DNA from: a virus
Taxonomy: Duplodnaviria > Caudoviricetes
DNA: 64,000 bases
Direction: 5' to 3' (one strand)
Virus record (IMG/VR): IMGVR_UViG_3300042691_028918
Location: 1,338-65,337 of that record
A program made the translations under genes and the position numbers. The notes below the pieces were generated by a model. It worked only from the letters and a program-made list of their open reading frames with translations. It had not been told where the DNA came from and did not search any database. This document shows, one piece after another, positions 34,282-55,113 of this stretch (position 1 is its first letter; every line of letters starts with the position of its first letter).

Positions 34282-34920
34282 ATGAAAAAATTTTTAAATG
34301 TAAAAAATATTATAATAGCAATACTTTGTATTGTACTTTTATTTAACTACCTAAAGGGATGTGTAGGAAAAAAAGAAGAAAAACCAACCGAAACCATAAA
34401 AATAGATGGTAAAAAGTATGAAGTTATAAAAAAAGAAATAGATACATTCTATTTAGAAAAAACAAAGGTAGTAAAGAAACCAGGGAAAGATATATACCAT
34501 GACACAACGATATATGTATCAGTTCCGCAAAACGTAGATACTGCAAAAATTTTATCACAATACTATGCTAAAAATGTATATAAAGATACATTGAAATTGG
34601 ATGATAGTCTTGGTTTTGTTTCGGTAATAGATACTATAAAAGAAAATACAATTCATTATAGAACTTTTAATGCAAAGGTTAGAGAAAAAATTGTTGAACA
34701 AAAAATATATTTAAAAGAACCACCAAAAAGACAATTGTATTTTGGATTTGAAGGCACTTTTGATAAAGCAGAAGTATTTAGAGGTGTTGGAACCGGTGTT
34801 GTTTATAAAACAAAATCTGATAAATTATATAAAGCAAATATTGGCGTTTTGAATTTACAAAATGATTTATCACCATATCTGAATGTGGGTATGTATTGGA
34901 AAATCAAATTAAAAAAATAA
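34282..34920 (+). CDS. Membrane/lipoprotein, possible spanin-like lysis accessory
   Basis: Basic N-terminus, hydrophobic helix and 'LKGC'. Repeated 'DT' strands and a C-terminal amphipathic beta strand 'YLNVGMYWKI'. Confidence 0.4.
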   Translation: MKKFLNVKNIIIAILCIVLLFNYLKGCVGKKEEKPTETIKIDGKKYEVIKKEIDTFYLEKTKVVKKPGKDIYHDTTIYVSVPQNVDTAKILSQYYAKNVYKDTLKLDDSLGFVSVIDTIKENTIHYRTFNAKVREKIVEQKIYLKEPPKRQLYFGFEGTFDKAEVFRGVGTGVVYKTKSDKLYKANIGVLNLQNDLSPYLNVGMYWKIKLKK

Positions 34921-36530
34921 TGGCGGTACAAGGTGCACCAAAAAAAAATTTAAAAGAACTAATATCGGATGAATATCGTAAATGTGCGGGAGACCCCATT
35001 TACTTTATGAAAAAATATTGTATAATTCAACATCCGACTAGAGGAAAAATCCCATTTCATTTATACCAATTTCAGCAAGAATGCCTAACTGATTTTAAAG
35101 AAAATCGTTTTAATATTATTCTTAAAAGTAGGCAGCTTGGATTATCTACACTTTCAGCTGGATTTATTCTTTGGAAAATGTTATTCAATCAGGATTTTAA
35201 TGCATTGGTTATTGCAACTAAAGTAACGGTAGCAAAAAATCTTGTAGAAAAAGTTAGAGTAATGCATGATTTACTTCCTGTTTGGTTAAGAGATGGTGGT
35301 AATTCTTCTGTTGAGGATAACAAACTTTCTCTTAAATTAAAAAACGGTTCGCAAGTAAAAGCAATCGCATCTTCTCCAGATGCAGGACGTTCTGAAGCAC
35401 TATCACTATTGGTAGTAGATGAGGCGGCATTCATTAGAGATATTGATGAAATTTGGTTATCAGCACAATCAACTCTATCAACGGGTGGTTCGGCAATCGT
35501 ATTATCTACACCAAATGGTGTTGGTAATTGGTTTCATAAAATGTGGGTAGAAGGAGAAAATGGTTCAAATGGATTTAATACCATAAAATTACATTGGACT
35601 GTACATCCTGAAAGAAATCAAGAGTGGAGAAACGAACAGACACGTATATTAGGAATTAAAGGTGCATCGCAAGAGTGTGATTGTGATTTCGTTGGATCCG
35701 GTGATACTGTGATTGATCCACAACTATTAATGTGGTATAAGGATACATACGTTATGGAGCCAGTAGAGAAGAGAGGATTCGATGGCAATCTTTGGATATG
35801 GGAACATCCAAATTATAATAGGCAATATATGGTTGTTGCAGACGTAGCGAGAGGTGATGGATCCGATTATTCAACGGCGCAAATAATTGATATAGAAGAT
35901 TGTTCACAAGTTGGAGAATATAGAGGCAAAATTGATACAAAAGATTTTGGAAACTTCCTAACCGCATTAGCAACGGAATATAACAACGCATTACTTGTAG
36001 TAGAAAACTCAAACGTAGGTTGGGCAGCAATACAGCAAGTTATAGATAGGGGGTATCCTAATTTATTCTATATGAGTAATGATCTTAAATATGTTGATGT
36101 TGAAAAACAAATGTCTAACAAATATTATAGAGATGAAAGGCAAATGGTAGCCGGATTTTCTACCACAACAAAGACACGACCTCTTATCATTTCTGCATTG
36201 GACACTTACTTAAATGAAAAGGAAATATTAGTTAGATCATCAAGATTAATAGAAGAATTATTTACATTCATATGGAATGGTGGTAGAGCGGAAGCAATGA
36301 AAGGGTATAATGATGACCTTACGATGGCATTGGCAATTGGATTGTGGGTAAGAAACACCGCGTTAAGATTAAAGCAAGAGGGAATTGACTTAACGAAAGC
36401 AATGTTAGGATCTTCACAAATAAAAAAATACGAAGGAGTATATACTCCCGCATCTCATTTAAAACAAAATCCATATGAAATGGATATGGGTAAAGGAGAA
36501 AAGGAAAATTTACATTGGTTATTGGGATAA
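34920..36530 (+). CDS. terL: Terminase large subunit (T4 gp17-like)
   Basis: 'KSRQLGLST' Walker A, 'LLVVDEAAF' Walker B, 'STPNG' coupling motif and nuclease 'ADVARGDGSDYS...DDLTMALA'. Start likely ATG 34920. Confidence 0.95.
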   Translation: MAVQGAPKKNLKELISDEYRKCAGDPIYFMKKYCIIQHPTRGKIPFHLYQFQQECLTDFKENRFNIILKSRQLGLSTLSAGFILWKMLFNQDFNALVIATKVTVAKNLVEKVRVMHDLLPVWLRDGGNSSVEDNKLSLKLKNGSQVKAIASSPDAGRSEALSLLVVDEAAFIRDIDEIWLSAQSTLSTGGSAIVLSTPNGVGNWFHKMWVEGENGSNGFNTIKLHWTVHPERNQEWRNEQTRILGIKGASQECDCDFVGSGDTVIDPQLLMWYKDTYVMEPVEKRGFDGNLWIWEHPNYNRQYMVVADVARGDGSDYSTAQIIDIEDCSQVGEYRGKIDTKDFGNFLTALATEYNNALLVVENSNVGWAAIQQVIDRGYPNLFYMSNDLKYVDVEKQMSNKYYRDERQMVAGFSTTTKTRPLIISALDTYLNEKEILVRSSRLIEELFTFIWNGGRAEAMKGYNDDLTMALAIGLWVRNTALRLKQEGIDLTKAMLGSSQIKKYEGVYTPASHLKQNPYEMDMGKGEKENLHWLLG

Positions 36531-37725: not shown

Positions 37726-39468
37726 ATGGCAGATAAATCTATATTCGGCAGGTTACAAAAACTATTTTCAACAAACACTATAATTCGTAAAACTCCAGAT
37801 GGGGTAAAGGTTGTAGATACGGATGAGTATCAATCTATGACAACCAATCTTGTTGATCGTTTTATGAAATTAAAGGTTAGTAATTATGCAGGCGGAGTAG
37901 AATCCGGATTGGCATATCAACAAGTCCGTATTGATCTTTTTAGAGATTATGATTCAATGGATATGGATCCAATCATTAGTGCCGCACTTAATGTATATGC
38001 GGATGAGTGTACTGCTAGAAATGAATTTGGAAATGTTTTAAAAATTCATCATGAAGATGATAATATAAAACAAATTTTAGAAAACTTATTTTACGATATT
38101 CTAAATATAGAACATAATTTGTGGATGTGGAGCCGTAATTTGGTAAAATACGGTGATTTTTATTTACAATTGGAGATGGCAGAAGGATTGGGTATTGTAA
38201 ATGTTTTACCATTATCAACGTATGAAATGAGTAGAATTGAAGGATTTGATCCACAAAATCCACAAAGAGTTAAATTTGTTTACGCTCCATATCAAAATCC
38301 ATATAATGCAGTTGGACAAAGTGCAAAAAAAGAATACGAAAATTACGAGATTGCACACTTTCGTTTGAATGGTGATGCAAACTTTTTACCATATGGTAAA
38401 TCAATGATAGAGGGCGGCCGCCGAGTTTGGAAACAATTATCACTTATGGAAGATGCAATGCTAATTCATAGAGTGATGCGTGCACCGGAAAAAAGAATAT
38501 TCAAAGTTGATGTAGGTAATATTCCCCCAAATGAGGTTGATAATTACATGCAGAAAATTATAAACAACTCCAAAAAAGTACCATTTGTTGATGAGAGAAC
38601 AGGCGAATATAACTTAAAGTATAATATTCAAAACCTTATCGAAGATTATTATATGCCAGTTCGTGGTAATGATAGTGGAACATCAATTGATACCCTAAAG
38701 GGGTTGGAATATAATATGATTGATGATATCAACTATTTAAAAGGAAAAATGTTAGCCGCACTTCAAATTCCAAAAGCATTTATAGGATATGAAGAAGAAA
38801 CAAATGGTAAAGCTACTTTAGCGGGAATGGATGTTCGTTTTGCAAAAACGATTGAGAGAATCCAAAGAACTATGATTTCCGAATTGACAAAAATAGCTAT
38901 AATTCATTTATATGCACAAGGAATAAACGATGAGAGATTGACTAATTTTTCTTTAGAATTAACCATTCCTTCAAAAATATATGAGCAAGAAAAAGTTGAA
39001 TTGTATACTGCAAAAGTACAACTAATAACATCCATGCAACAAACAAAGATGTTCTCTAAAGAATGGATGTATGAAGCAATTATGGGAATGGCCAAAGATG
39101 AACAAGATCAACAAACATTGGCCGTATTGGAAGATACAAAACAACAATTCCGTTTAACATCTATCGAAACGCAAGGTGTAGATCCTGCGAAAGAAACAGG
39201 AACAGAAGCACCTACAAACGTTGAAGAAGAAATTGCAAAAATAAAAGCTGAATTGGAAGAAGATGGTGTTGGTAGACCTAAAGATTCTGTTAGATATGGT
39301 AAAGATGACCATCCGGAGGGAAGAGACCCATTAGGAATTAAAACTCTTAAACAAAAGGAAGGATCGGTAAAATATAAACCAAGAAAAACACCATATTTAG
39401 AAATATTCAAAGATATGAATGGAAATAAAAAGAGAATTTTGACAGAGGATATAACAAAAGAGCAATAA
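37726..39468 (+). CDS. gp20: Portal protein (T4 gp20-like)
   Basis: 'LMEDAMLIHRVMRAPEKRIFKVDVGNIP...EDYYMPVRG...GTSIDTLKG...DDINYL' are hallmark gp20 motifs. Confidence 0.95.
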   Translation: MADKSIFGRLQKLFSTNTIIRKTPDGVKVVDTDEYQSMTTNLVDRFMKLKVSNYAGGVESGLAYQQVRIDLFRDYDSMDMDPIISAALNVYADECTARNEFGNVLKIHHEDDNIKQILENLFYDILNIEHNLWMWSRNLVKYGDFYLQLEMAEGLGIVNVLPLSTYEMSRIEGFDPQNPQRVKFVYAPYQNPYNAVGQSAKKEYENYEIAHFRLNGDANFLPYGKSMIEGGRRVWKQLSLMEDAMLIHRVMRAPEKRIFKVDVGNIPPNEVDNYMQKIINNSKKVPFVDERTGEYNLKYNIQNLIEDYYMPVRGNDSGTSIDTLKGLEYNMIDDINYLKGKMLAALQIPKAFIGYEEETNGKATLAGMDVRFAKTIERIQRTMISELTKIAIIHLYAQGINDERLTNFSLELTIPSKIYEQEKVELYTAKVQLITSMQQTKMFSKEWMYEAIMGMAKDEQDQQTLAVLEDTKQQFRLTSIETQGVDPAKETGTEAPTNVEEEIAKIKAELEEDGVGRPKDSVRYGKDDHPEGRDPLGIKTLKQKEGSVKYKPRKTPYLEIFKDMNGNKKRILTEDITKEQ

Positions 39469-39512
39469 ACTAATACAAAAGTATATTTATATCTGATTAA
39501 TTGTACAAATTG

Positions 39513-40385
39513 ATGAAAAAAATAAAACATTCAAAATTTAAAAATACAGGATTCATTTTTGAATTGCTTGTAAGGCAGGTTACATCCGAAATACTTTCGT
39601 CCAACAAATCAATAGCAGAAATTATTTTAAAAGAATTTTTTAATTCTAAAAAAGAATTATCAAAGGAATTGAAGTTATATCAATACCTTATAAATGAAAA
39701 GTATAATTCAGAAGCAAAGGCTGAAAAGTTTATTGATACAATATGCGAAGCTAGAAAAAGATTGGATGAAAAAAAATTAATAAAAGAAAAATATTCTTTA
39801 ATTAAAAAAATAAAAGAAAACTATAATATAGATGATTTTATAAAATCACCAATATCAAACTATAAATCGTTGGCATCAATATATAAGATATTTGAAGTTG
39901 TTACAACAAACGAACAATACGATCCAACTGATATAGTAAGTTCTAGATTTACAATTACGGAAAATATAATAAACACATCTATTCAAAATAAAGATGCAAA
40001 AATAAAAGATGCTGTTTTAGAAGAATATAAAAAACAAGATGAAGATTTAAGAGCGGTTTCTTATAAACTGCTTGTAGAATCCTTCAATAACAAATATAAA
40101 AATTTATCATCTGAACAAAAATTATTATTGAAAGAATATATTAATAATATTAATAACACAGGTAAATTAAACGATTTCGTTGCAACCGAAGTTACAAAAT
40201 TATTAGAATCTTTGAAAGAAGTTGGATCTAAAATTTCCGATAAAGTTACAAAGATAAAATTGGCAGAAACAATATCAAATATTAAAAAGATAAAATCTGT
40301 TAAAAAAATAAAAGAACAACATCTATCAGCCATGATGATGACATATGAACTATTAACCGAATTAAAAAATAGTTTAAATAAGTGA
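39513..40385 (+). CDS. Hypothetical helical head-module protein
   Basis: Lys/Glu-rich ORF between portal and protease ('KHSKFKNTGFIFELLVR'). Preceded by TATTTATA at 39484-39491. Confidence 0.6.
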   Translation: MKKIKHSKFKNTGFIFELLVRQVTSEILSSNKSIAEIILKEFFNSKKELSKELKLYQYLINEKYNSEAKAEKFIDTICEARKRLDEKKLIKEKYSLIKKIKENYNIDDFIKSPISNYKSLASIYKIFEVVTTNEQYDPTDIVSSRFTITENIINTSIQNKDAKIKDAVLEEYKKQDEDLRAVSYKLLVESFNNKYKNLSSEQKLLLKEYINNINNTGKLNDFVATEVTKLLESLKEVGSKISDKVTKIKLAETISNIKKIKSVKKIKEQHLSAMMMTYELLTELKNSLNK

Positions 40386-40813
40386 AAAATATAGATATCA
40401 ATAGTATAAAAGAAATCATAAGACAAATCATCAGAGAAAAGATGATTGATGAAATGAATAGTACTGCGAATGCACAGGGGTATAATACACCAAAAGCATT
40501 TGGTAAGCCTGGAAATGAAAAAAAGAAAGGAAAAAGATTAGCAGATTTAACCGGATATTCGGTTGTTAGTGAAAATCGTTGGCTAGAGTTAAAAAGAGAT
40601 GAATCAACCGCACAGGCAAAAATAGGTAGAGGAATTTCCAATATCAACAAACAATTAAAAGAAATGGAAAGGTTTCTTAATTGGTATGGTAAGATTAAAA
40701 ACGAAAGTGGTGTAGATAACAAATCTTATTGGAAAAGAACAAATAATCATATTTATGCTATAAAAGAAAGATTATTAAAATTAGACCAAAAAATAAGACA
40801 AATATCCGAATAA
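40382..40813 (+). CDS. Hypothetical head-module protein
   Basis: 143 aa. N-terminal 'IKEIIRQIIRE...IDE', then 'YNTPKAF'. Confidence 0.6.
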   Translation: MKNIDINSIKEIIRQIIREKMIDEMNSTANAQGYNTPKAFGKPGNEKKKGKRLADLTGYSVVSENRWLELKRDESTAQAKIGRGISNINKQLKEMERFLNWYGKIKNESGVDNKSYWKRTNNHIYAIKERLLKLDQKIRQISE

Positions 40814-40814
40814 A

Positions 40815-41117
40815 ATGAATATAAATCAATTAAAAGAACTTATTAAGGAAGTCATTAAAGAGGAGCAAGATTATCAACAATTATTTAAAACTATGTTAGA
40901 TAAAAGTGGTAAATCTATAGAATCCATGTCCGATGAGGAAAAAAAGAAATTTTTCAATGCAGTTGATAAGGCATATAAAGCAAAGCAAGAGGGAAAGTTG
41001 AGAGGATATAATGAATTGACTGATAAGCAAAAACAAATTGATGTTGATAAGGATGGTGAAATTGAAGGATCAGACTTAGCAACATTGAGAGCAAAAAACG
41101 AAGAAAAAAAAAAGTAA
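40815..41117 (+). CDS. Small head-module protein with EF-hand-like loop, ending in a slippery A-run
   Basis: 'DVDKDGEIEGSDL' fits DxDxDGxIxxxD. The ORF ends GAA AAA AAA AAG TAA. Confidence 0.65.
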   Translation: MNINQLKELIKEVIKEEQDYQQLFKTMLDKSGKSIESMSDEEKKKFFNAVDKAYKAKQEGKLRGYNELTDKQKQIDVDKDGEIEGSDLATLRAKNEEKKK

Positions 41118-41527
41118 ATGAGAACTTTGCCGTAGGATTATTATCCGTTTTGGGTAGTATCATTATTGGTAAAGTTGTTTTTTATTATTTATATGATTTA
41201 GTTAGAAGGGGAATGAGTTATTTCTCCGGAAAACCAAATTACAAAGATGCGGTTAAAAAAGTTTTAGATTCAATGGCAAACAATAAAAGAGTTGCGGATG
41301 ATATATCTAAAATAATTGACCCAGAAAGAGGAATGGATAATGGAACGACTGATAAAATTGTGAAGATGGGGTACGTTCAAAATAGTATTCAAAAAGTTAT
41401 AGATAAAAATAAAGATGGATTGGATAAGACGGAATTGGAAAATCAATTAAAAATTATAATTTCCAAGTCTTGGGATGATTTAGGTGATAAGGCGGTAGAT
41501 AAAGTAAAAAATGATTTAAAAAAATGA
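41114..41527 (+). CDS. Hydrophobic-helix protein, probably the -1 frameshift extension of 40815-41117
   Basis: The frame is open from the A-run (VNENFAVGLLSVLGSIIIGK...). There is no ATG before the weak TTG at 41150. Confidence 0.55.
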   Translation, partial: VNENFAVGLLSVLGSIIIGKVVFYYLYDLVRRGMSYFSGKPNYKDAVKKVLDSMANNKRVADDISKIIDPERGMDNGTTDKIVKMGYVQNSIQKVIDKNKDGLDKTELENQLKIIISKSWDDLGDKAVDKVKNDLKK

Positions 41528-42114
41528 ATAAGAATCTTCTGATAGAAACACACCTTTTTGAAGCAAAGCTTGTAAAAGAAGAGAATGGAACTTATTTAGT
41601 TTCTGGTATCTTACAAAGAGCCGGTGCTCCAAATCAAAATAATAGAAGATATCCAAAAGAAATTCTTGAAAGAGAGTGTAAAAAGTATAATCAACTAATT
41701 AAAGAAAGAAGAGCATTGGGTGAATTGGATCATCCAGATTCCCCAGTAATAAATTTAAAAAACGTATCACACAATATCAGAGAAATTTGGTGGGAGGGTG
41801 ATGATGTTATGGGAAAAGTTGAAATATTATCAACACCATCCGGCAATATCCTAAAAGAACTATTAAAGAATAATATTCGTTTGGGAATTTCATCAAGAGG
41901 ATTGGGTTCTGTAAAAGAACTTAATGATGGAACTGTTATGGTACAAGAAGATTTTGAATTGGTAGGGTGGGATTTTGTTTCAAACCCATCAACACATGGA
42001 GCATTTATGGCACCATTACAGGAGAGTAAGCAGTGGGCAAAAATAGCAGAAGAATGTGGAAAATGGTGTAGAGCACAAGACCTTATGAGAGAAATTATAA
42101 TTGAATTAAATTAA
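41524..42114 (+). CDS. gp21: Prohead core protease (T4 gp21-like)
   Basis: 'NQNNRRYP', 'ALGELDHP', 'VSH', 'LGISSRGLGS' and 'DFVSNPSTHGA'. Confidence 0.95.
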   Translation: MNKNLLIETHLFEAKLVKEENGTYLVSGILQRAGAPNQNNRRYPKEILERECKKYNQLIKERRALGELDHPDSPVINLKNVSHNIREIWWEGDDVMGKVEILSTPSGNILKELLKNNIRLGISSRGLGSVKELNDGTVMVQEDFELVGWDFVSNPSTHGAFMAPLQESKQWAKIAEECGKWCRAQDLMREIIIELN

Positions 42115-42119
42115 TATAA

Positions 42120-42650
42120 ATGGCAAAGTTAGTAAATTTTATACCTGGTAGACAAATCCAAAAAGAAGCATTGGATGATATGGATGCTCCATTACCGGCC
42201 CAAATGGAACGGTTTTTGGATAGAGCCATAAGAGTAATTAGAGGATATAATTTATCTAGAAAAAAAGAACAATTTGTGATAGCAAAGATTATTGATGCAT
42301 TGGGATTAAGCCCGGCTGAATTATCGCAAGCAGTTCAAAAATTGAAAAAAAATAAAGTAGTAAGTAGATTAAATGAAGCTTCTGATATGGATATTTCATC
42401 GTTGGTTAAAAAAATAGAAAAACATACCGATAGAAATGCACATACCGATGCAGTAATTGAATTGGCAAAGTTTTTAAAACAAAAAAAGTTTGAAAATATT
42501 TTAAATTCAATTATGGATATTCATCTTGAAATGGGTAGTATGCCAGCAGAACTTTCAAAATTAAGAGGACAAATATTGGATGAACTTATGAAGATGGTAA
42601 GAAATAAGTACGGAAACGATATTTATAAACAAATAAATTCGGTATACTAA
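42120..42650 (+). CDS. Hypothetical head-module protein
   Basis: 176-aa helical ORF with two segments separated by 'RLNEA'. Confidence 0.55.
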   Translation: MAKLVNFIPGRQIQKEALDDMDAPLPAQMERFLDRAIRVIRGYNLSRKKEQFVIAKIIDALGLSPAELSQAVQKLKKNKVVSRLNEASDMDISSLVKKIEKHTDRNAHTDAVIELAKFLKQKKFENILNSIMDIHLEMGSMPAELSKLRGQILDELMKMVRNKYGNDIYKQINSVY

Positions 42651-43180
42651 TGATAAAATTAAAACATATATTAAGAGAAACTGAAGAGTTTCAACAATTA
42701 CCATCGGAAGTTAAAAAACACTTTTTAGAAATAATTTCAACGTATGGTCAGCATAGAGAAAGTATGCAAAGAAAATCTGATATTAGACAGATTGCAGAAA
42801 CTTTGGGAGCAATTGCAGATGCCGCACAAGAATACACTTTAAGAGAAGGCGGTGATTGGTTTGATAGAGTGACCATTAAGAGAAATATGAATGAACTTAA
42901 AAAATTACAATCTGCATTCGAAAAGGAATCGGTAGAAGCAAAAGCACAAGAACAAAGATTGGAAGCTCTTTACGAAGATATGGGGCATGTGTTAGGTAGA
43001 TACTTTGAAATAGCAGAAATAACTGAAGAGCAAATGCACCAAAGATTGGGATTACAGGAAAAAGCACCTGAAGGGTGGGAAAAAACAGTAAAGGCAATGA
43101 AAGATGAGCCAGAAGTAGATAACCCATGGGCATTGGCACATTGGATGAAAGGACAAGGATATAAATCTCACAAAAAATAA
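42650..43180 (+). CDS. Hypothetical head-module protein
   Basis: N-terminal 'MIKLKHILRE', a coiled coil, and a C-terminal micro-module after 'LQE' ('KAPEGWEKTVKAMK...DNPWALAHWMK'). Confidence 0.6.
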   Translation: MIKLKHILRETEEFQQLPSEVKKHFLEIISTYGQHRESMQRKSDIRQIAETLGAIADAAQEYTLREGGDWFDRVTIKRNMNELKKLQSAFEKESVEAKAQEQRLEALYEDMGHVLGRYFEIAEITEEQMHQRLGLQEKAPEGWEKTVKAMKDEPEVDNPWALAHWMKGQGYKSHKK

Positions 43181-43182
43181 TT

Positions 43183-43554
43183 ATGGAACAATTAGCATCA
43201 CTTTTATTACATAGTAGAACACAGGCACACACATTTCATTTAGGTGTGAAGGGTGTAGGTGCATTATCTGCACATTTGGCATTAGGTCACTACTATGATA
43301 CAATTGGTGGTATGGTTGATGGGTTAGTAGAGGTTTATCAAGGTAAAGAAGGATTGATTAAATTACAACCTATAAGTGGGTTGGATACAAATTGTGATAT
43401 AAAAAATATCATTTCATATTTTGATAAACTATGCAAAATTGTTGCAAAGTTACGTCAGGATGAAAAACTACAAGATAGTTGGATTCAGAATGATATTGAT
43501 ACGGTAGTTTCGTTACTTTATTCTACAAAGTACAAACTAACCTATCTTCAATAA
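43183..43554 (+). CDS. Ferritin/Dps-like four-helix-bundle protein (DUF5856-like)
   Basis: 'QAHTFHL...AHLALGHYYD...DGLVEVYQGK...IQNDID...STKYKL'. Confidence 0.65.
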   Translation: MEQLASLLLHSRTQAHTFHLGVKGVGALSAHLALGHYYDTIGGMVDGLVEVYQGKEGLIKLQPISGLDTNCDIKNIISYFDKLCKIVAKLRQDEKLQDSWIQNDIDTVVSLLYSTKYKLTYLQ

Positions 43555-45270: not shown

Positions 45271-46878
45271 ATGGATTTAAAACAAATTATGCAAGGGAAA
45301 AACCCACAAAACATAATGCTTGAGCAAACCAGAGGTTTGAAAAGCAAGTGGGAAAAAACAGGATTACTCGAAGGAGTTGGTTCTGAAACGCAAAAGCATG
45401 GTATGGCAGTAATGCTTGAAAACCAGGCAAAGCAATTACTTGATGAAGCTACTAGAACAGGTACTTCAGCAGGTTCAGAAGAGTGGGCAGGTGTAGCTCT
45501 TCCATTGGTTAGACGTATCTTTGGTTCAATCGCAGCTAAAGAGTTCGTTTCTGTACAACCAATGAACTTACCATCAGGTCTTATTTTCTATATGGATTTC
45601 AAATATGGTACTAACACTACATTAGGTAGACCAGCTTCTGGTTCTTCTATGTTCGGTAACGGTGGCGGATTTGGTAAAGATAATTTAGCTCCTTCTGGAA
45701 ACAAACTTGGTTCTACTCAAGAAACTGAAGGTGGTCTTTACGGTGCAGGTAGATTCGGATATACAATCAACGATACTACTGCAACAGTAACCGCAACTGT
45801 AACTACAGCTTCTTGGTCTGATGTAAATTTTGATAATGATTTATCAGCATCTATTGCATCTGCTAATTCAAGAGTAATGAAAGTTAAAGTTGGTTTACCA
45901 GCTGATGCTGATTGGCAAGGTGTTAGAGCATTCAAAATTTCAGGTTCTGCAACTACAACGTTGTTCCCAGAATATACTATCGTTGATAGTTATGGTTCTG
46001 CATCATTCGTACTTTCTGGATCTGCAGTTACCGATACAAACGTTGCAACGCAAGTATTGACTTATCATTTACAACCAACAGATTACAACAGAGGTGATTT
46101 CGAAGATAAAGGTTCTGACCTTCCAATTCCTGAAATCGAACTTGAATTGAAATCTGAACCAATCGTTGCAAAAACTCGTAAGTTAAAGGCTATCTGGACT
46201 CCAGAATTGGCACAAGACTTGAACGCATACCATTCAGTAGATGCGGAAGCTGAATTAACTCAAATGCTTTCTGAATATATCTCTCTTGAGATTGATTTGG
46301 AAATCCTTGAAATGCTTCAGCAAAATGCATTCACTACTGATTACTGGTCTGCAAGAGTTGGATATGATTGGAACGGTTCTGGTTTCGCAATCGATGCAAA
46401 CGCAGCAGCAGCATCTGCTTACACAAAGAGCACTTGGTATCAAACTTTGGGTATCAAATTGCAGAAAGTTTCTAACAAAATTCACCAATTGACTATGAGA
46501 GGTGGTGCAAACTTCTTGGTTGTATCTCCAAACGTAGCAACAATTCTTGAATCTATGAACGGATTCTCTGCAAACCCAGGTAAAGATGCTTTACAGTTCG
46601 CAGCAGGTGTTACTAACATTGGTTCAATCTCTAACAGATATGATGTGTATAAGAATCCTTATATGACTGAAAACGTAATCTTGTTAGGTTTCAAAGGTTC
46701 TAACTTCTTCGAAACAGGAGCAGTTTACGCACCTTATGTACCATTGATTATGACTCCGTTAGTTTATGACCCAACCAACTTCACTCCAAGAAGAGGTGTG
46801 ATGACTAGATACGCTAAGAAAATCGTAAGACCAGAGTTTTACGGTAAGATTATCGTTGAAGGTTTACACTCTCTCTAA
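45271..46878 (+). CDS. gp23: Major capsid protein (T4 gp23-like)
   Basis: 'KWEKTGLLEG...MLENQ', 'VSVQPMNLPSGLIF', 'AKTRKLKAIWTPELAQDLNAYHSVDAEAEL', 'YAPYVPL' and 'GVMTRYA'. Confidence 0.97.
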   Translation: MDLKQIMQGKNPQNIMLEQTRGLKSKWEKTGLLEGVGSETQKHGMAVMLENQAKQLLDEATRTGTSAGSEEWAGVALPLVRRIFGSIAAKEFVSVQPMNLPSGLIFYMDFKYGTNTTLGRPASGSSMFGNGGGFGKDNLAPSGNKLGSTQETEGGLYGAGRFGYTINDTTATVTATVTTASWSDVNFDNDLSASIASANSRVMKVKVGLPADADWQGVRAFKISGSATTTLFPEYTIVDSYGSASFVLSGSAVTDTNVATQVLTYHLQPTDYNRGDFEDKGSDLPIPEIELELKSEPIVAKTRKLKAIWTPELAQDLNAYHSVDAEAELTQMLSEYISLEIDLEILEMLQQNAFTTDYWSARVGYDWNGSGFAIDANAAAASAYTKSTWYQTLGIKLQKVSNKIHQLTMRGGANFLVVSPNVATILESMNGFSANPGKDALQFAAGVTNIGSISNRYDVYKNPYMTENVILLGFKGSNFFETGAVYAPYVPLIMTPLVYDPTNFTPRRGVMTRYAKKIVRPEFYGKIIVEGLHSL

Positions 46879-51605: not shown

Positions 51606-52091
51606 ATGGCAACACTAATACAAATAAAACAAATAGAGAGTAGTTCGTTCTTAATACAGGCAGCAGTACTTGCACAAACATTTACCGAATCTGTAACGGC
51701 TGTAGTTGATTATATTGGAGTGGTATCCGCATCATCGCAATTGACCGGTGCATATGATTTAAGATATGCGCTTAGTGGAACAGTTGGAGGTGGGGCATCC
51801 GATTGGAATAATCTAACAGGAATACCACAAGGATTGATATCATCATCAGCTCAATTGGATGGAACAACTCTTAAAAATATCACAATATCTACTGCTGATG
51901 CTGATTCTTACTCATTAATAGTGAGTGGTGCTATGGGTGTCGTGGATGCAAATAACTTACCAGAAGGACCTAATGCGGATGATACAAATGTTCCTGCACA
52001 GATTTATTTAGCAGGAGGAACTGTTCTTCCGGCAGACCCATCGGCTAGTGGAAGTGCGGATGCAAATATTATAGATCAAGGAGAGTGGTAA
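51606..52091 (+). CDS. Small virion protein
   Basis: 'MATLIQIKQI', 'GVVSASSQ/GLISSSAQ' repeats and C-terminal 'IDQGEW'. Confidence 0.5.
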   Translation: MATLIQIKQIESSSFLIQAAVLAQTFTESVTAVVDYIGVVSASSQLTGAYDLRYALSGTVGGGASDWNNLTGIPQGLISSSAQLDGTTLKNITISTADADSYSLIVSGAMGVVDANNLPEGPNADDTNVPAQIYLAGGTVLPADPSASGSADANIIDQGEW

Positions 52092-52161
52092 TCAAAAAAA
52101 AAATGATATTTATATATTGAATAACCATAATTAATTAATTTTAACGGAGAATAACTAAAAT

Positions 52162-55113
52162 ATGGCACAAATAATTAAGCACAGGCGTGGTAGTTTAGAA
52201 GCACTATCAAACGTAACCGCATCACTATCAAAGGGTGAAATAGTAATAGCATCGGGTTCATCCAATATATCACCTACTAATGGATCATCCATTGTATTTG
52301 CAGCAGTTGAAAATGGACAAGTACAGGCTGTAAACAGAGTATTGCGTGGAACAACCGTACCCAATACATTTTCAAACGCAGCTTATAATGGATTAGTTAA
52401 TGGTGTTCCATATTATGTTAGTGCATCAAACGTTACACCAACTTTATATTTGTTGGGAACCGATGCAAATGAAGCCATAAATTTAATAGGTAACATACAA
52501 CCATTCTCCCAATCGGTTGATACAAGATTGGATGCATTGGAACAATCAATTGGAGCAGGCGATGTTGGAACAAGTATAAATTTCTTAAACGCATATACTG
52601 GATCTAATAATGCTAGACTTAATGCAATTGAAGTATCTACAGGATCTATAAACAATTTTACCGCATCGACTGCAGCAAGCTTAACTAACTTAAACGTATC
52701 ATCCGCATCACAGCAGACCAGTATTAACGCAATAAATGTTAGTACGGGTTCATTAAATACATTTACCGCATCCGCTGCAAGTAGATTAACTAATTTAGAA
52801 TTAGATTCGGCAAGTAACGATGCAAGTGTTGCAAGTTTAAATTCATACACTGCATCGGTGAGCGCCAGCTTGTGGAATTTGAATACATATACTAACTCCG
52901 TAAGTGCGAGTATATTGAATTTAAACATCAGTTCGGGTTCACAACAGGCATCTCTAAACGCATTGAGTGTAAGTACCGGATCGTTAAACACATATACGGC
53001 ATCCGCAACTAGCAGATTTAATAATTTAGAATTAACTTCAGCAAGCGTAAATGCAAGTGTTGCGGCATTAAATATCAGTACATCATCTTTGAATGGTTTT
53101 ACTGCATCAACTGCTGCAAGTTTGACTAACTTAAACGTATCATCCGCATCGCAGCAGGCTTCAATAAATGCGATAAATGTTAGTACAAGCTCATTAAATA
53201 CATTCACAGGATCTGCAGCAAATAGATTGAGCAGTTTGGAATCCAAAACTGGATCATACGCAACTACCGGATCAAATACATTTAACGGTACACAGGTCAT
53301 TAGTGGATCTGTATATATAACGCAAGATTTAATAGTAATAGGTTCATCATCTATTTCAAATATTAGTGCTAGTGTTCTTAACATTGGTGATAATCAAATA
53401 ACATTAAATACATTCACACCTGCAATTAGGTTTGGTGGTATAAGTGTTATTGATTCGGGATCAACGGGTGGAACGGGTTCATTGTGGTGGGATAGTGTGA
53501 ATAATCACTGGATATATGAACATCCAGCTGATTCGGAAGATCCTTATAATTCTGCAATGCTTATCTCCGGCCCTAAAAACACCGGAACATTAGGAAATGA
53601 AGTTGGATTGACAAGTGGTTCGTTCCCAATGGCAATTGGTGATGACCATATATCAAGTTCAATAATGTCACAGGCTACTGATAATACAAAAGTTATTATA
53701 GCAGGTGGTTTGGATGTTCTGGCTGAATTAAGTGCATCCACTATTACGGGTATTGGAAATGTTACATCATTCTCCCAATCAGTTGATAGTAGGTTGGATG
53801 CAGTTGAGGCATCAATTGGTGGTGGTTCTGTAACATCTGCAATCAATGCATTGAATGCAAGTACCGCATCATTAAATGCATCCAGCGCATCCCAACAGAC
53901 TAGCATAAACGCATTAAATGCAAGTTCCGCATCGCTCAATACATTTACAGCATCTGCAGCGAGTAGATTAAGTAATCTTGAAACAAAATCGGGAAGTGTA
54001 GATAGTAGTGTAAGTAATTTAAACTTATACACTGCATCTGTAAGTGCTAGTTTGTGGAATATTAATACCTACACAAATTCAGTTAGTGCAAGTGTATTAA
54101 ACCTCAACATCAGTTCTGGTTCACAACAAGCTTCAATTACTGCATTGAGTGTGAGTACGGGATCCATAAACACATTCACATCATCCACAACTAGTAGATT
54201 AAACAATTTAGAATCTACATCTGCAAGTTCAACTGCGGGATTAACGGCAATAAACGCATCGACAGCATCACTAAACTCATATACAGCATCTGTAAGTGCT
54301 AGTTTGTGGAATATAAACACTTATACCAACTCTGTAAGTGCAAGTGTATTAAACCTCAATATAAGTTCTGGTTCACAACAGGCAAGTATTAGTGCATTGA
54401 GTGTGAGTACAGGTTCTTTAAATACATTTAGTGCATCAACCGCTGCATCATTAACAAACTTAAACACATATACGGCGGCGGTAAGTGTAAGTGTATTGAA
54501 TTTAAATATCAGTTCGGGTTCGCAACAGACAAGCATTAATGCATTGAATGTCAGTACAGGATCTATTAATACATTTACTGCATCGGCATCTAGTAGATTA
54601 AATAATTTGGAATTAGATTCCGCAAGTGCAGATGCAAGTATCGCTGCTTTAAACGTATCTACGAGTTCAATAAACTCATATACATCATCATTAAAATCTG
54701 CAATATCTGTAAATGGAACCAACCTTACAGTTATAGGAGATTTGACTGTACAAGGTAGTACCGTAACATTAAATACAACCGAACTTGTTGTAGAAGATAA
54801 GTTAATAGTATTGGCATCGGGATCAACGACATCATTGCAATCCGATGGTGCAGGTATATACATATCTGGATCTGGAGCAACATTTACCTACGCAAATACA
54901 GGCGACGCGTGGACAGCAAATAGACCTTTTAGCGGTTCAGCATTTACCGGATCATTCAATTTACCAACGGGTGGTTCAAGTAAAAGAATTGTTTTTAGAG
55001 AAACAACGGGTAATTTGGATTTGGTCATTGCACCTACCGTTGATGGTGATTTCTTACAATGGAACGGAAGTGCATTTACAATGAGTAATGTTATAGATGG
55101 TGGTTCGTTTTAA
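52162..55113 (+). CDS. Long repetitive fibre protein (coiled-coil shaft)
   Basis: 'MAQIIKHRRG' N-terminus, heptad-based 'LNTFTAS/LNVSTGS' repeats and C-terminal 'IDGGSF'. Confidence 0.75.
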   Translation: MAQIIKHRRGSLEALSNVTASLSKGEIVIASGSSNISPTNGSSIVFAAVENGQVQAVNRVLRGTTVPNTFSNAAYNGLVNGVPYYVSASNVTPTLYLLGTDANEAINLIGNIQPFSQSVDTRLDALEQSIGAGDVGTSINFLNAYTGSNNARLNAIEVSTGSINNFTASTAASLTNLNVSSASQQTSINAINVSTGSLNTFTASAASRLTNLELDSASNDASVASLNSYTASVSASLWNLNTYTNSVSASILNLNISSGSQQASLNALSVSTGSLNTYTASATSRFNNLELTSASVNASVAALNISTSSLNGFTASTAASLTNLNVSSASQQASINAINVSTSSLNTFTGSAANRLSSLESKTGSYATTGSNTFNGTQVISGSVYITQDLIVIGSSSISNISASVLNIGDNQITLNTFTPAIRFGGISVIDSGSTGGTGSLWWDSVNNHWIYEHPADSEDPYNSAMLISGPKNTGTLGNEVGLTSGSFPMAIGDDHISSSIMSQATDNTKVIIAGGLDVLAELSASTITGIGNVTSFSQSVDSRLDAVEASIGGGSVTSAINALNASTASLNASSASQQTSINALNASSASLNTFTASAASRLSNLETKSGSVDSSVSNLNLYTASVSASLWNINTYTNSVSASVLNLNISSGSQQASITALSVSTGSINTFTSSTTSRLNNLESTSASSTAGLTAINASTASLNSYTASVSASLWNINTYTNSVSASVLNLNISSGSQQASISALSVSTGSLNTFSASTAASLTNLNTYTAAVSVSVLNLNISSGSQQTSINALNVSTGSINTFTASASSRLNNLELDSASADASIAALNVSTSSINSYTSSLKSAISVNGTNLTVIGDLTVQGSTVTLNTTELVVEDKLIVLASGSTTSLQSDGAGIYISGSGATFTYANTGDAWTANRPFSGSAFTGSFNLPTGGSSKRIVFRETTGNLDLVIAPTVDGDFLQWNGSAFTMSNVIDGGSF

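Follow-up and report, generated by a model that had tools for sequence, protein, structure and literature searches.

The window, the 64,000-nt stretch of DNA analyzed here, represents nearly the whole of a 65,337-base virus record whose completeness was judged to be about 30%, and it has a G+C content of 31.9%. Profile matches indicated that its head module is of the T4 type, with gp20-, gp21- and gp23-like genes. The large terminase is encoded at 34896-36530, and a gp20-like portal protein is encoded at 37726-39468 (PF07230, E = 8.7e-70). Four small ORFs separate the portal gene from that of a gp21-like prohead protease of the S77 type (41524..42114, + strand; PF03420, E = 3.4e-33; phrog_207, E = 4.2e-57). 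More small ORFs and an acidic scaffold-like ORF lie between the protease gene and that of a gp23-like capsid protein (45271-46878). The interval from the protease gene to the scaffold-like ORF also holds a small DUF5856 or Dps-like (ferritin-like) protein (43183-43554). No tRNA genes were found in the window. When phage records were searched by blastn, the protease gene alone was matched (6 records), and tblastn of the -1 frame part described below against phage records gave no match. The nearest isolate at the DNA level was Flavobacterium phage immuto; the match was confined to the protease gene, and at the position of the two ORFs studied here this phage has an unrelated 360-aa gene.

Two ORFs between the portal and the prohead protease genes, ORF1 and ORF2, occupy the position of T4 genes 67 and 68. 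ORF1 (40815..41117, + strand) encodes a protein of 100 aa with a 66-aa N-terminal domain, an EF-hand-like loop at residues 76-87 and a KKK end. An earlier note on this DNA had proposed that a -1 frameshift at the end of ORF1 fuses the two ORFs. It gave the last codons correctly as AAA AAA AAG TAA but omitted one GAA before them; the actual end is GAA GAA AAA AAA AAG TAA. Its coordinates for a run of 10 A's (41104..41113, + strand) and for the heptamer A AAA AAG (41108..41114, + strand) agreed with the sequence. The heptamer is in phase with ORF1, and the 0-frame stop TAA (41115..41117, + strand) abuts it. The -1 frame is open from 41066, after a TGA at 41063-41065, to a stop at 41525-41527, which is overlapped by the ATG of the protease gene at 41524. 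Across the junction, this frame reads KKK-VNENFAVGLLSVLG..., and it displays a coding pattern from the run onward. The -1 frame part (41114..41527, + strand) comprises 137 aa plus the stop, so that the predicted long form has 237 aa. As the note had also pointed out, no ATG occurs between the stop at 41063 and a TTG at 41150. This TTG is the first ATG, GTG or TTG codon, and the first ATG is found at 41213.

Long A runs are scarce in the window. Five A9 words were seen, versus 16.4 expected from shuffles, and there are three runs of at least 9 A's in all. A second A10 run (52094-52103) is intergenic, just past the stop of the ORF at 51606-52091 and 58 nt before a 983-aa ORF starting at 52162. 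An A9 run (CCA AAA AAA AAT, 34940-34948) falls within the opening codons of the ORF for the large terminase, which is called from TTG 34896 or ATG 34920. In window ORFs of at least 120 aa, all six KKK triplets are interrupted by AAG, despite an AAA:AAG ratio of 1233:206.

The length of the run was checked with Logan contigs of four DNA runs aligned to 40382-42114. Three contigs span the run with 0 gaps, namely those of X2 (41021-41512, 1 mismatch), X10 (40870-41241, 14 mismatches) and X3 (41013-41160, 13 mismatches); that of X1 begins at 41096 and was left out of the bridging count. No indel at 41104-41113 was found in the contigs of any of the 4 runs, which as contigs cannot reveal rare variants. 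A search for RNA runs containing the sequence gave none. The independent contigs thus give A10, and neither the A11 nor the A8 that would contradict the proposed shift.

Conservation of the junction among relatives

Related loci were collected in sets of 10 from IMG/VR, 53 from metagenomes and three further sets from IMG/VR, with many contigs repeated between sets. The run was present in all 10 of the first IMG/VR loci and in 49 of the 49 metagenome loci that reach the junction, the other 4 being two cut loci and two partial matches. With HMMs for ORF2 and for the N-domain of ORF1, we obtained an N-domain match in 138 of 144 sources, representing 70 distinct junction contexts. ORF2 is in the -1 frame without a start of its own in 48 of these, with a run of A9-A11. 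In one context (L130 type), ORF2 starts at an ATG of its own, which overlaps the stop of ORF1, and an A10 run lies in frame further downstream. Two contexts are single in-frame fused ORFs, one without a long run (L065) and one with A9 in frame (L067). ORF2 is absent from 18 contexts. Four of these are truncated where the locus ends; in the remaining 14, which are complete, the protease gene directly follows ORF1 and the run is only A3-A7. In the last context, an A11 run is followed by ORF2 in the +1 frame; this context comes from one contig (L084, L150 and L268) with a 46-nt deletion, relative to L085, in the EF-hand region.

The complete shifted loci number 97, of which 71 are distinct, with A9 in 3, A10 in 47 and A11 in 21. 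Grouping by ORF2 identity gave 34 clusters at 90%, 16 at 80% and 11 at 70%, and pairwise identity is as low as 35%. When all loci were counted again, 80 distinct tails were obtained, with A9 in 2, A10 in 54, A11 in 23 and A12 in 1. In every one of these 80, a heptamer is in phase, either A AAA AAG or the variants A AAA AAA and A AAA AAC. A 0-frame stop is found 0-2 codons past the run in 71 of the 71 distinct loci, and the third frame is stopped 2-3 codons past the run, again in 71 of 71. The variation in run length is due to substitutions in the flanks, and the -1 register is therefore constant. In 11 of the 71, the first two A's of the run are part of a -1 frame stop, and the shift must therefore occur inside the run. 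An internal KKKFF motif never exceeds A7 (51 sequences), and the other conserved Lys columns of both genes are encoded by AAA 820 times and by AAG 279 times. According to these comparisons, the slippery run, the stop, the -1 register and the lack of an independent start, which the earlier note wanted to see in homologs, are kept in the great majority of them.

The conservation also bears on translation of the -1 frame. The residues just after the run are [LIV]-x-E, with the Glu invariant in 71 of 71 sequences while the third base of its codon varies. The hydrophobic residues that follow are conserved at second codon positions and free at third positions. The first ATG, GTG or TTG of the -1 frame occurs anywhere from codon 6 to codon 62, at a position that is not conserved and never ahead of [LIV]-x-E. 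In the AlphaFold model of the 137-aa part (pLDDT 87.7), residues 3-36, encoded at 41120..41221 (+ strand), form one long hydrophobic helix. A start at the TTG, which is residue 13, would therefore cut this helix, in line with the earlier suggestion that it would be divided in half.

Fused forms of the two ORFs exist as predicted proteins. When 1.84 billion representatives were searched with a profile, 60 matches were obtained. Eight fused representatives of 208-217 aa have the ORF1 N-domain joined in frame to the ORF2 domain via [LIM]-[ND]-E, and the ORF2 domain was found in 26 of 100 longer ORF1 homologs. Six full-length in-frame fusions of the shifted type have the junction ...AQKKKVNEN... 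or ...GAQKKKVDEN..., which is exactly that of the predicted trans-frame product and supports the fusion as a real protein. One full-length fusion form was present on 8 contigs from three sources. In addition, one 90% cluster held 340-aa fused proteins together with 129-aa ORF2-only calls, so the run length may also vary at the DNA level. Neither IMG/VR nor GTDB genomes yielded the DNA that encodes the full-length in-frame fusions. The fused L067, with A9 in frame and AGG TAA in the -1 frame, is arranged in mirror image, so that a shift would yield the short form. The L067 and L130 lineages, which need no shift, still have A9 or A10 in frame. Another phage gene family (L220-L262; e.g., L222:901-918) has a conserved in-frame A11 (...LSAQKKKVVAKK...) within an ORF of more than 500 codons. 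All 30 complete loci of that family keep a continuous frame, with the two other frames shut within 0-10 codons.

An RNA hairpin 3' of the run

Folding of the 97 nt from the run predicted a hairpin at 41113..41186 (+ strand) with a minimum free energy (MFE) of -25.5 kcal/mol and a z-score of -5.12; none of 200 shuffles was as stable. It consists, on the + strand, of outer pairs (41113-41118 with 41181-41186), a core helix (41123-41131 with 41168-41176) and an apical helix (41139-41146 with 41152-41159). The spacing from the heptamer to the core helix is 8 nt, or 5 nt if two further pairs are counted. As a background, 194 windows of the same size over the 64 kb had a mean z of -0.56 (sd 1.21) and a minimum of -3.75, none being at or below -4. 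Among the 80 distinct tails, z was at or below -2 in 72 and at or below -3 in 52. The four tested relatives that need no shift lack the hairpin (z of -0.28 for L065, +0.15 for L066, -1.47 for L067 and -0.85 for L130).

The structure differs between two subgroups of sequences. In subgroup 1 (VNEN/VDEN type, 40 sequences), the consensus has an outer helix beginning at the last A of the run and a core helix 8 nt past the heptamer. Helix 1 was 90% paired, and the whole structure was 80.7% paired, versus 41-55% with slid partners. In subgroup 2 (32 sequences), a different hairpin was 86.9% paired versus 34-59% with slid partners, and no compensatory change was seen. The percent-paired values of both subgroups are inflated because each tested structure was taken from a single member. 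The covariation score of subgroup 1 exceeded that of 500 of 500 shuffles. Two pairs alternate between U:A and C:G, namely 21:70 (UA 29, CG 7), with the switch in 7 sequences, and 22:69 (CG 19, UA 16), with the switch in 16. In one of these two, the first base of a Leu or Phe codon faces the third base, a synonymous one, of a Lys codon; this combination was C:G 25 times, U:A 17 times and of other types 6 times (Fisher p = 3e-8, a value that ignores phylogeny). When 27 junctions from both structural subgroups were given to RNAalifold as one mixed set, 0 pairs were returned.

Another hairpin, upstream of the run (41038-41088), lies in the part encoding the EF-hand-like loop and ends 15 nt before the run. 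It has a z of -4.3 to -4.4 and was the most extreme of the 194 background windows, and it is not positionally conserved, being displaced in relatives by a 70-aa insert. A Shine-Dalgarno-like GAAGGGG upstream was considered and rejected; some relatives have it but the window does not, and such sites are little used by this phage. An Rfam scan of 40600-41700 gave no match, and no terminator-like sites were found in 39400-42300.

Origin of the long form

The site, its conservation, the 3' hairpin and the fused homologs, all observed in silico, support the earlier proposal of a -1 frameshift that joins two head-module ORFs, and from them we conclude that recoding of some kind very probably occurs at the A10 run. 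The split does fall at a homopolymer, and in-frame versions are present in some databases, as would be seen if a sequencing or assembly error had divided a single true ORF. Against such an error, the 97 complete loci, from many assemblies, share one register, and the X2, X3 and X10 contigs cross the run with 0 gaps; its probability is negligible. A related possibility is that the gene is phase variable and that subpopulations of DNA with A10 and A11 make the long form, with no recoding involved. Fused and split calls inside one 90% identity cluster, as well as full-length in-frame fusions in several assemblies, are what this would predict. On the other hand, all the A10/A11/A12 differences among loci are base substitutions that preserve the -1 register, in-frame length variants were absent among the IMG/VR loci, and none of the 43 matches in a scan for the motif GCTC-A11-GTA came from the ORF1/ORF2 family. 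The contigs of the 4 runs were also without indel, and the hairpin would be left unexplained. Variation in the DNA is thus an improbable source of the long form. Even less credit can be given to two separate genes, with ORF2 beginning at TTG 41150 or ATG 41213 and the upstream -1 frame untranslated. It is true that gene callers give products of 125 and 104 aa and that some distant relatives (L130, P0052, P0039 and P0050) have their own ATG and a short leader, but coding-pattern conservation of amino acids begins directly after the run, start-codon positions vary among relatives, and the helix would be truncated or lost with a start at 41150 or 41213. Moreover, Shine-Dalgarno sites are mostly missing from the window genes, a match of even 4 bases being found for 8 of 45 ORFs.

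If recoding takes place, either the ribosome or RNA polymerase could slip on the run. In the latter case (programmed transcriptional realignment), the polymerase would add an extra A, and ordinary translation of the altered mRNA would give the long form. The run has at least 9 A's in all 71 and all 80 distinct junctions of the two counts, while a heptamer needs 7; this length is a better fit to polymerase slippage, which may therefore add to or replace ribosomal slippage. Runs of about 8-9 or more are in the range described for transcriptional realignment sites in passages of PMC3711429. According to passages of PMC4256274, the A11 tract of tssM1 gives 20-25% frameshifting, and a relative has a mirror arrangement; the fused L067, with A9 in frame and AGG TAA in the -1 frame, is of this kind. 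The rest of the window avoids long A runs, and both other frames are shut within 0-3 codons of the run, so that any off-length mRNA would give the short form. Three features do not fit the polymerase as the main route. The downstream hairpin is conserved, covaries and is missing where no shift is needed, and it points to the ribosome because a polymerase copying the run cannot sense a downstream hairpin that is still untranscribed. In every sequence the run is abutted by the 0-frame stop, as would suit slippage by the ribosome. The upstream hairpin (41038-41088), for its part, ends 15 nt short of the run, and in relatives the 70-aa insert displaces it. Weighing these points, we think that a mainly transcriptional route is unlikely, though still worth considering. 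We favor, with modest confidence, a programmed -1 shift that is mainly ribosomal, given the heptamer in phase, the stop that abuts it and the conserved hairpin at canonical spacing. Most of the probability left by these two estimates goes to ribosome and polymerase contributing about equally.

With the ribosome as the main route, events could proceed as follows. Most ribosomes would stop at the TAA of ORF1 and yield a 100-aa head-core protein. A fraction would slip back one base on A AAA AAG, held by the adjoining stop and by the hairpin 5-8 nt downstream, and would continue in the -1 frame to produce the 237-aa fusion ...EEKKK-VNE-NFAVGLL.... Polymerase slippage, changing A10 to A11 in the mRNA, would lead to the same protein and may play a part. 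The frequency of the shift would then set how much cargo is made.

Protein products and comparison with known systems

The 66-aa N-domain of ORF1 is conserved over hundreds of loci. Residues 76-87 (DVDKDGEIEGSD, 41040-41075) resemble an EF-hand or dockerin-type calcium-loop motif, with matches to PDB CaBP1 (E = 3e-4 over 25 residues) and, below the cut-off of 22.9 bits, to Dockerin_1 (E = 0.0091, 16.6 bits). In some relatives, e.g., P0108, the EF-hand-like motif is found twice. No Pfam or PHROG family was found for ORF1 or ORF2, and profile comparison revealed no similarity to T4 gp67 or gp68 (hhalign probability 0.04-0.25%).

At the junction, V-N-E (41114..41122, + strand) is a putative prohead-protease site. 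The earlier note had likened it to protease-site linkers of neighboring proteins, and we found such linkers within the ORF1 family itself, in which SVNE, SINE or VVNE parts unrelated modules of longer proteins (P0116, P0125, P0140, P0151 and P0164). Passages of PMC9026906 give the motif of the T4 protease gp21 as L/I-X-E, cut after Glu. According to passages of PMC9026906 and PMC9958956, gp21 degrades gp67 and gp68 and trims short targeting peptides off internal proteins. Judging from the sequence motifs, the long form looks like a polyprotein cut by the prohead protease at VNE. The ORF1 part would act as a carrier that enters the prohead core and brings the -1 frame part along, and the protease encoded downstream would cut after V-N-E and free a helix-bearing part of 134 aa. 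Both the carrier role and the release are inferred from the SVNE-type linkers in family polyproteins and the specificity of gp21. The products would probably be located in the head, with short and long forms presumably made at a set ratio as the earlier note had suggested. Taken as a whole, the explanation comprising recoding with the ribosome as the main route, a polyprotein and its cleavage appears reasonably probable.

The part that would be freed was modeled as all-helical, starting with the 34-residue hydrophobic helix. Foldseek against the PDB returned nothing at E ≤ 0.001 for this part, a sequence search of the PDB returned nothing below E = 0.07, and the BFVD match was to one uncharacterized 204-aa homolog only. 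Our guess is that it might be a membrane-active internal protein. Stand-alone ORF2 homologs have, in place of ORF1, a short leader (MIKLKSILIEVMKKKSVNE-) that resembles the N terminus of the window ORF at 42650. The leader MIKLKHILRE of this ORF (42650-42680) is similar to MIKLKSILIE of stand-alone ORF2 homologs (L130:2746-2800). From this likeness in sequence, the common leader may be a shared capsid-targeting peptide.

In tailed phages, most known programmed frameshifts are those of tail chaperone genes, with a few in capsid genes. The case described here is similar to the G/GT tail assembly chaperone of lambda, as presented in passages of PMC5009743, in having a conserved -1 shift in a virion assembly gene and a minor long form that shares its N-terminal part; unlike G/GT, it belongs to the head and not the tail module, involves an unrelated protein family and has a protease motif at the junction. 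With T4 gp67, gp68 and the internal proteins, whose processing by gp21 is described in passages of PMC9958956 and PMC9026906, it shares the position from portal to protease, the small size and the L/I-X-E-type sites, which here are putative. It differs from gp67 and gp68 in that there is no detectable sequence similarity, and T4 has no annotated frameshift at that place. The mechanism is textbook, and its use in T4-like head-core genes was not found described in the literature searched.

Elements of the IS3 family (IS911 and IS150) have -1 cassettes on A AAA AAG, with a 3' stem-loop and two products of common N terminus. The same heptamer is that of the E. coli dnaX -1 cassette, on which passages of PMC3711429 and PMC4066793 were consulted; there, too, a 3' stem-loop lies a few bases downstream and two products with a common N terminus are made at a fixed ratio, but the dnaX shift truncates the protein, whereas the shift here would lengthen it. 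The present site also departs from both the dnaX and the IS3-family cassettes in lacking a conserved Shine-Dalgarno-like element, in having the stop abut the heptamer and a run that always has at least 9 A's, and in lying in a phage head-core gene. An A run just before a stop, giving short and long variants, is likewise found in poly-A transcriptional frameshifting, as in C. rodentium tssM1 (A11), Y. pseudotuberculosis tssM3 and Thermus thermophilus dnaX (A9). The mirror arrangement of L067 has its counterpart in relatives of tssM1, which passages of PMC4256274 describe as in frame, with slippage giving the short form. In contrast to the present case with its conserved 3' hairpin, slippage in tssM and Thermus dnaX was demonstrated in mRNA and occurs without a 3' hairpin.

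With the junction, a well-conserved case of probable recoding is added for the prohead core, in a T4-like group that is widespread in freshwater. Its product is mis-annotated everywhere as two genes, the second of them truncated. It also suggests a route by which a minor protein could be dosed, loaded into the capsid and released by the maturation protease. Since the family occurs in shifted, fused, own-leader and absent forms, it offers a natural series that could separate ribosomal from transcriptional poly-A slippage.

In retroviruses and Ty elements, a -1 shift produces a minor Gag-Pol fusion that enters the capsid via the part it shares with the major protein, Gag, and is then freed by the viral protease. 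A comparable system of loading can be imagined here, although we regard it as speculative and rather unlikely in its full extent. The 66-aa domain would be a carrier for variable cargo released at SVNE-type sites, and the frameshift would dose a membrane-active helix cargo, harmful in excess, that leaves the capsid with the DNA and acts at the host membrane; the run, read by both ribosome and RNA polymerase, would serve as an evolutionary switch, a change from A10 to A11 inverting the ratio of short to long form. The likeness to Gag/Gag-Pol is one of logic only, a functional analogy between unrelated proteins of unrelated hosts.
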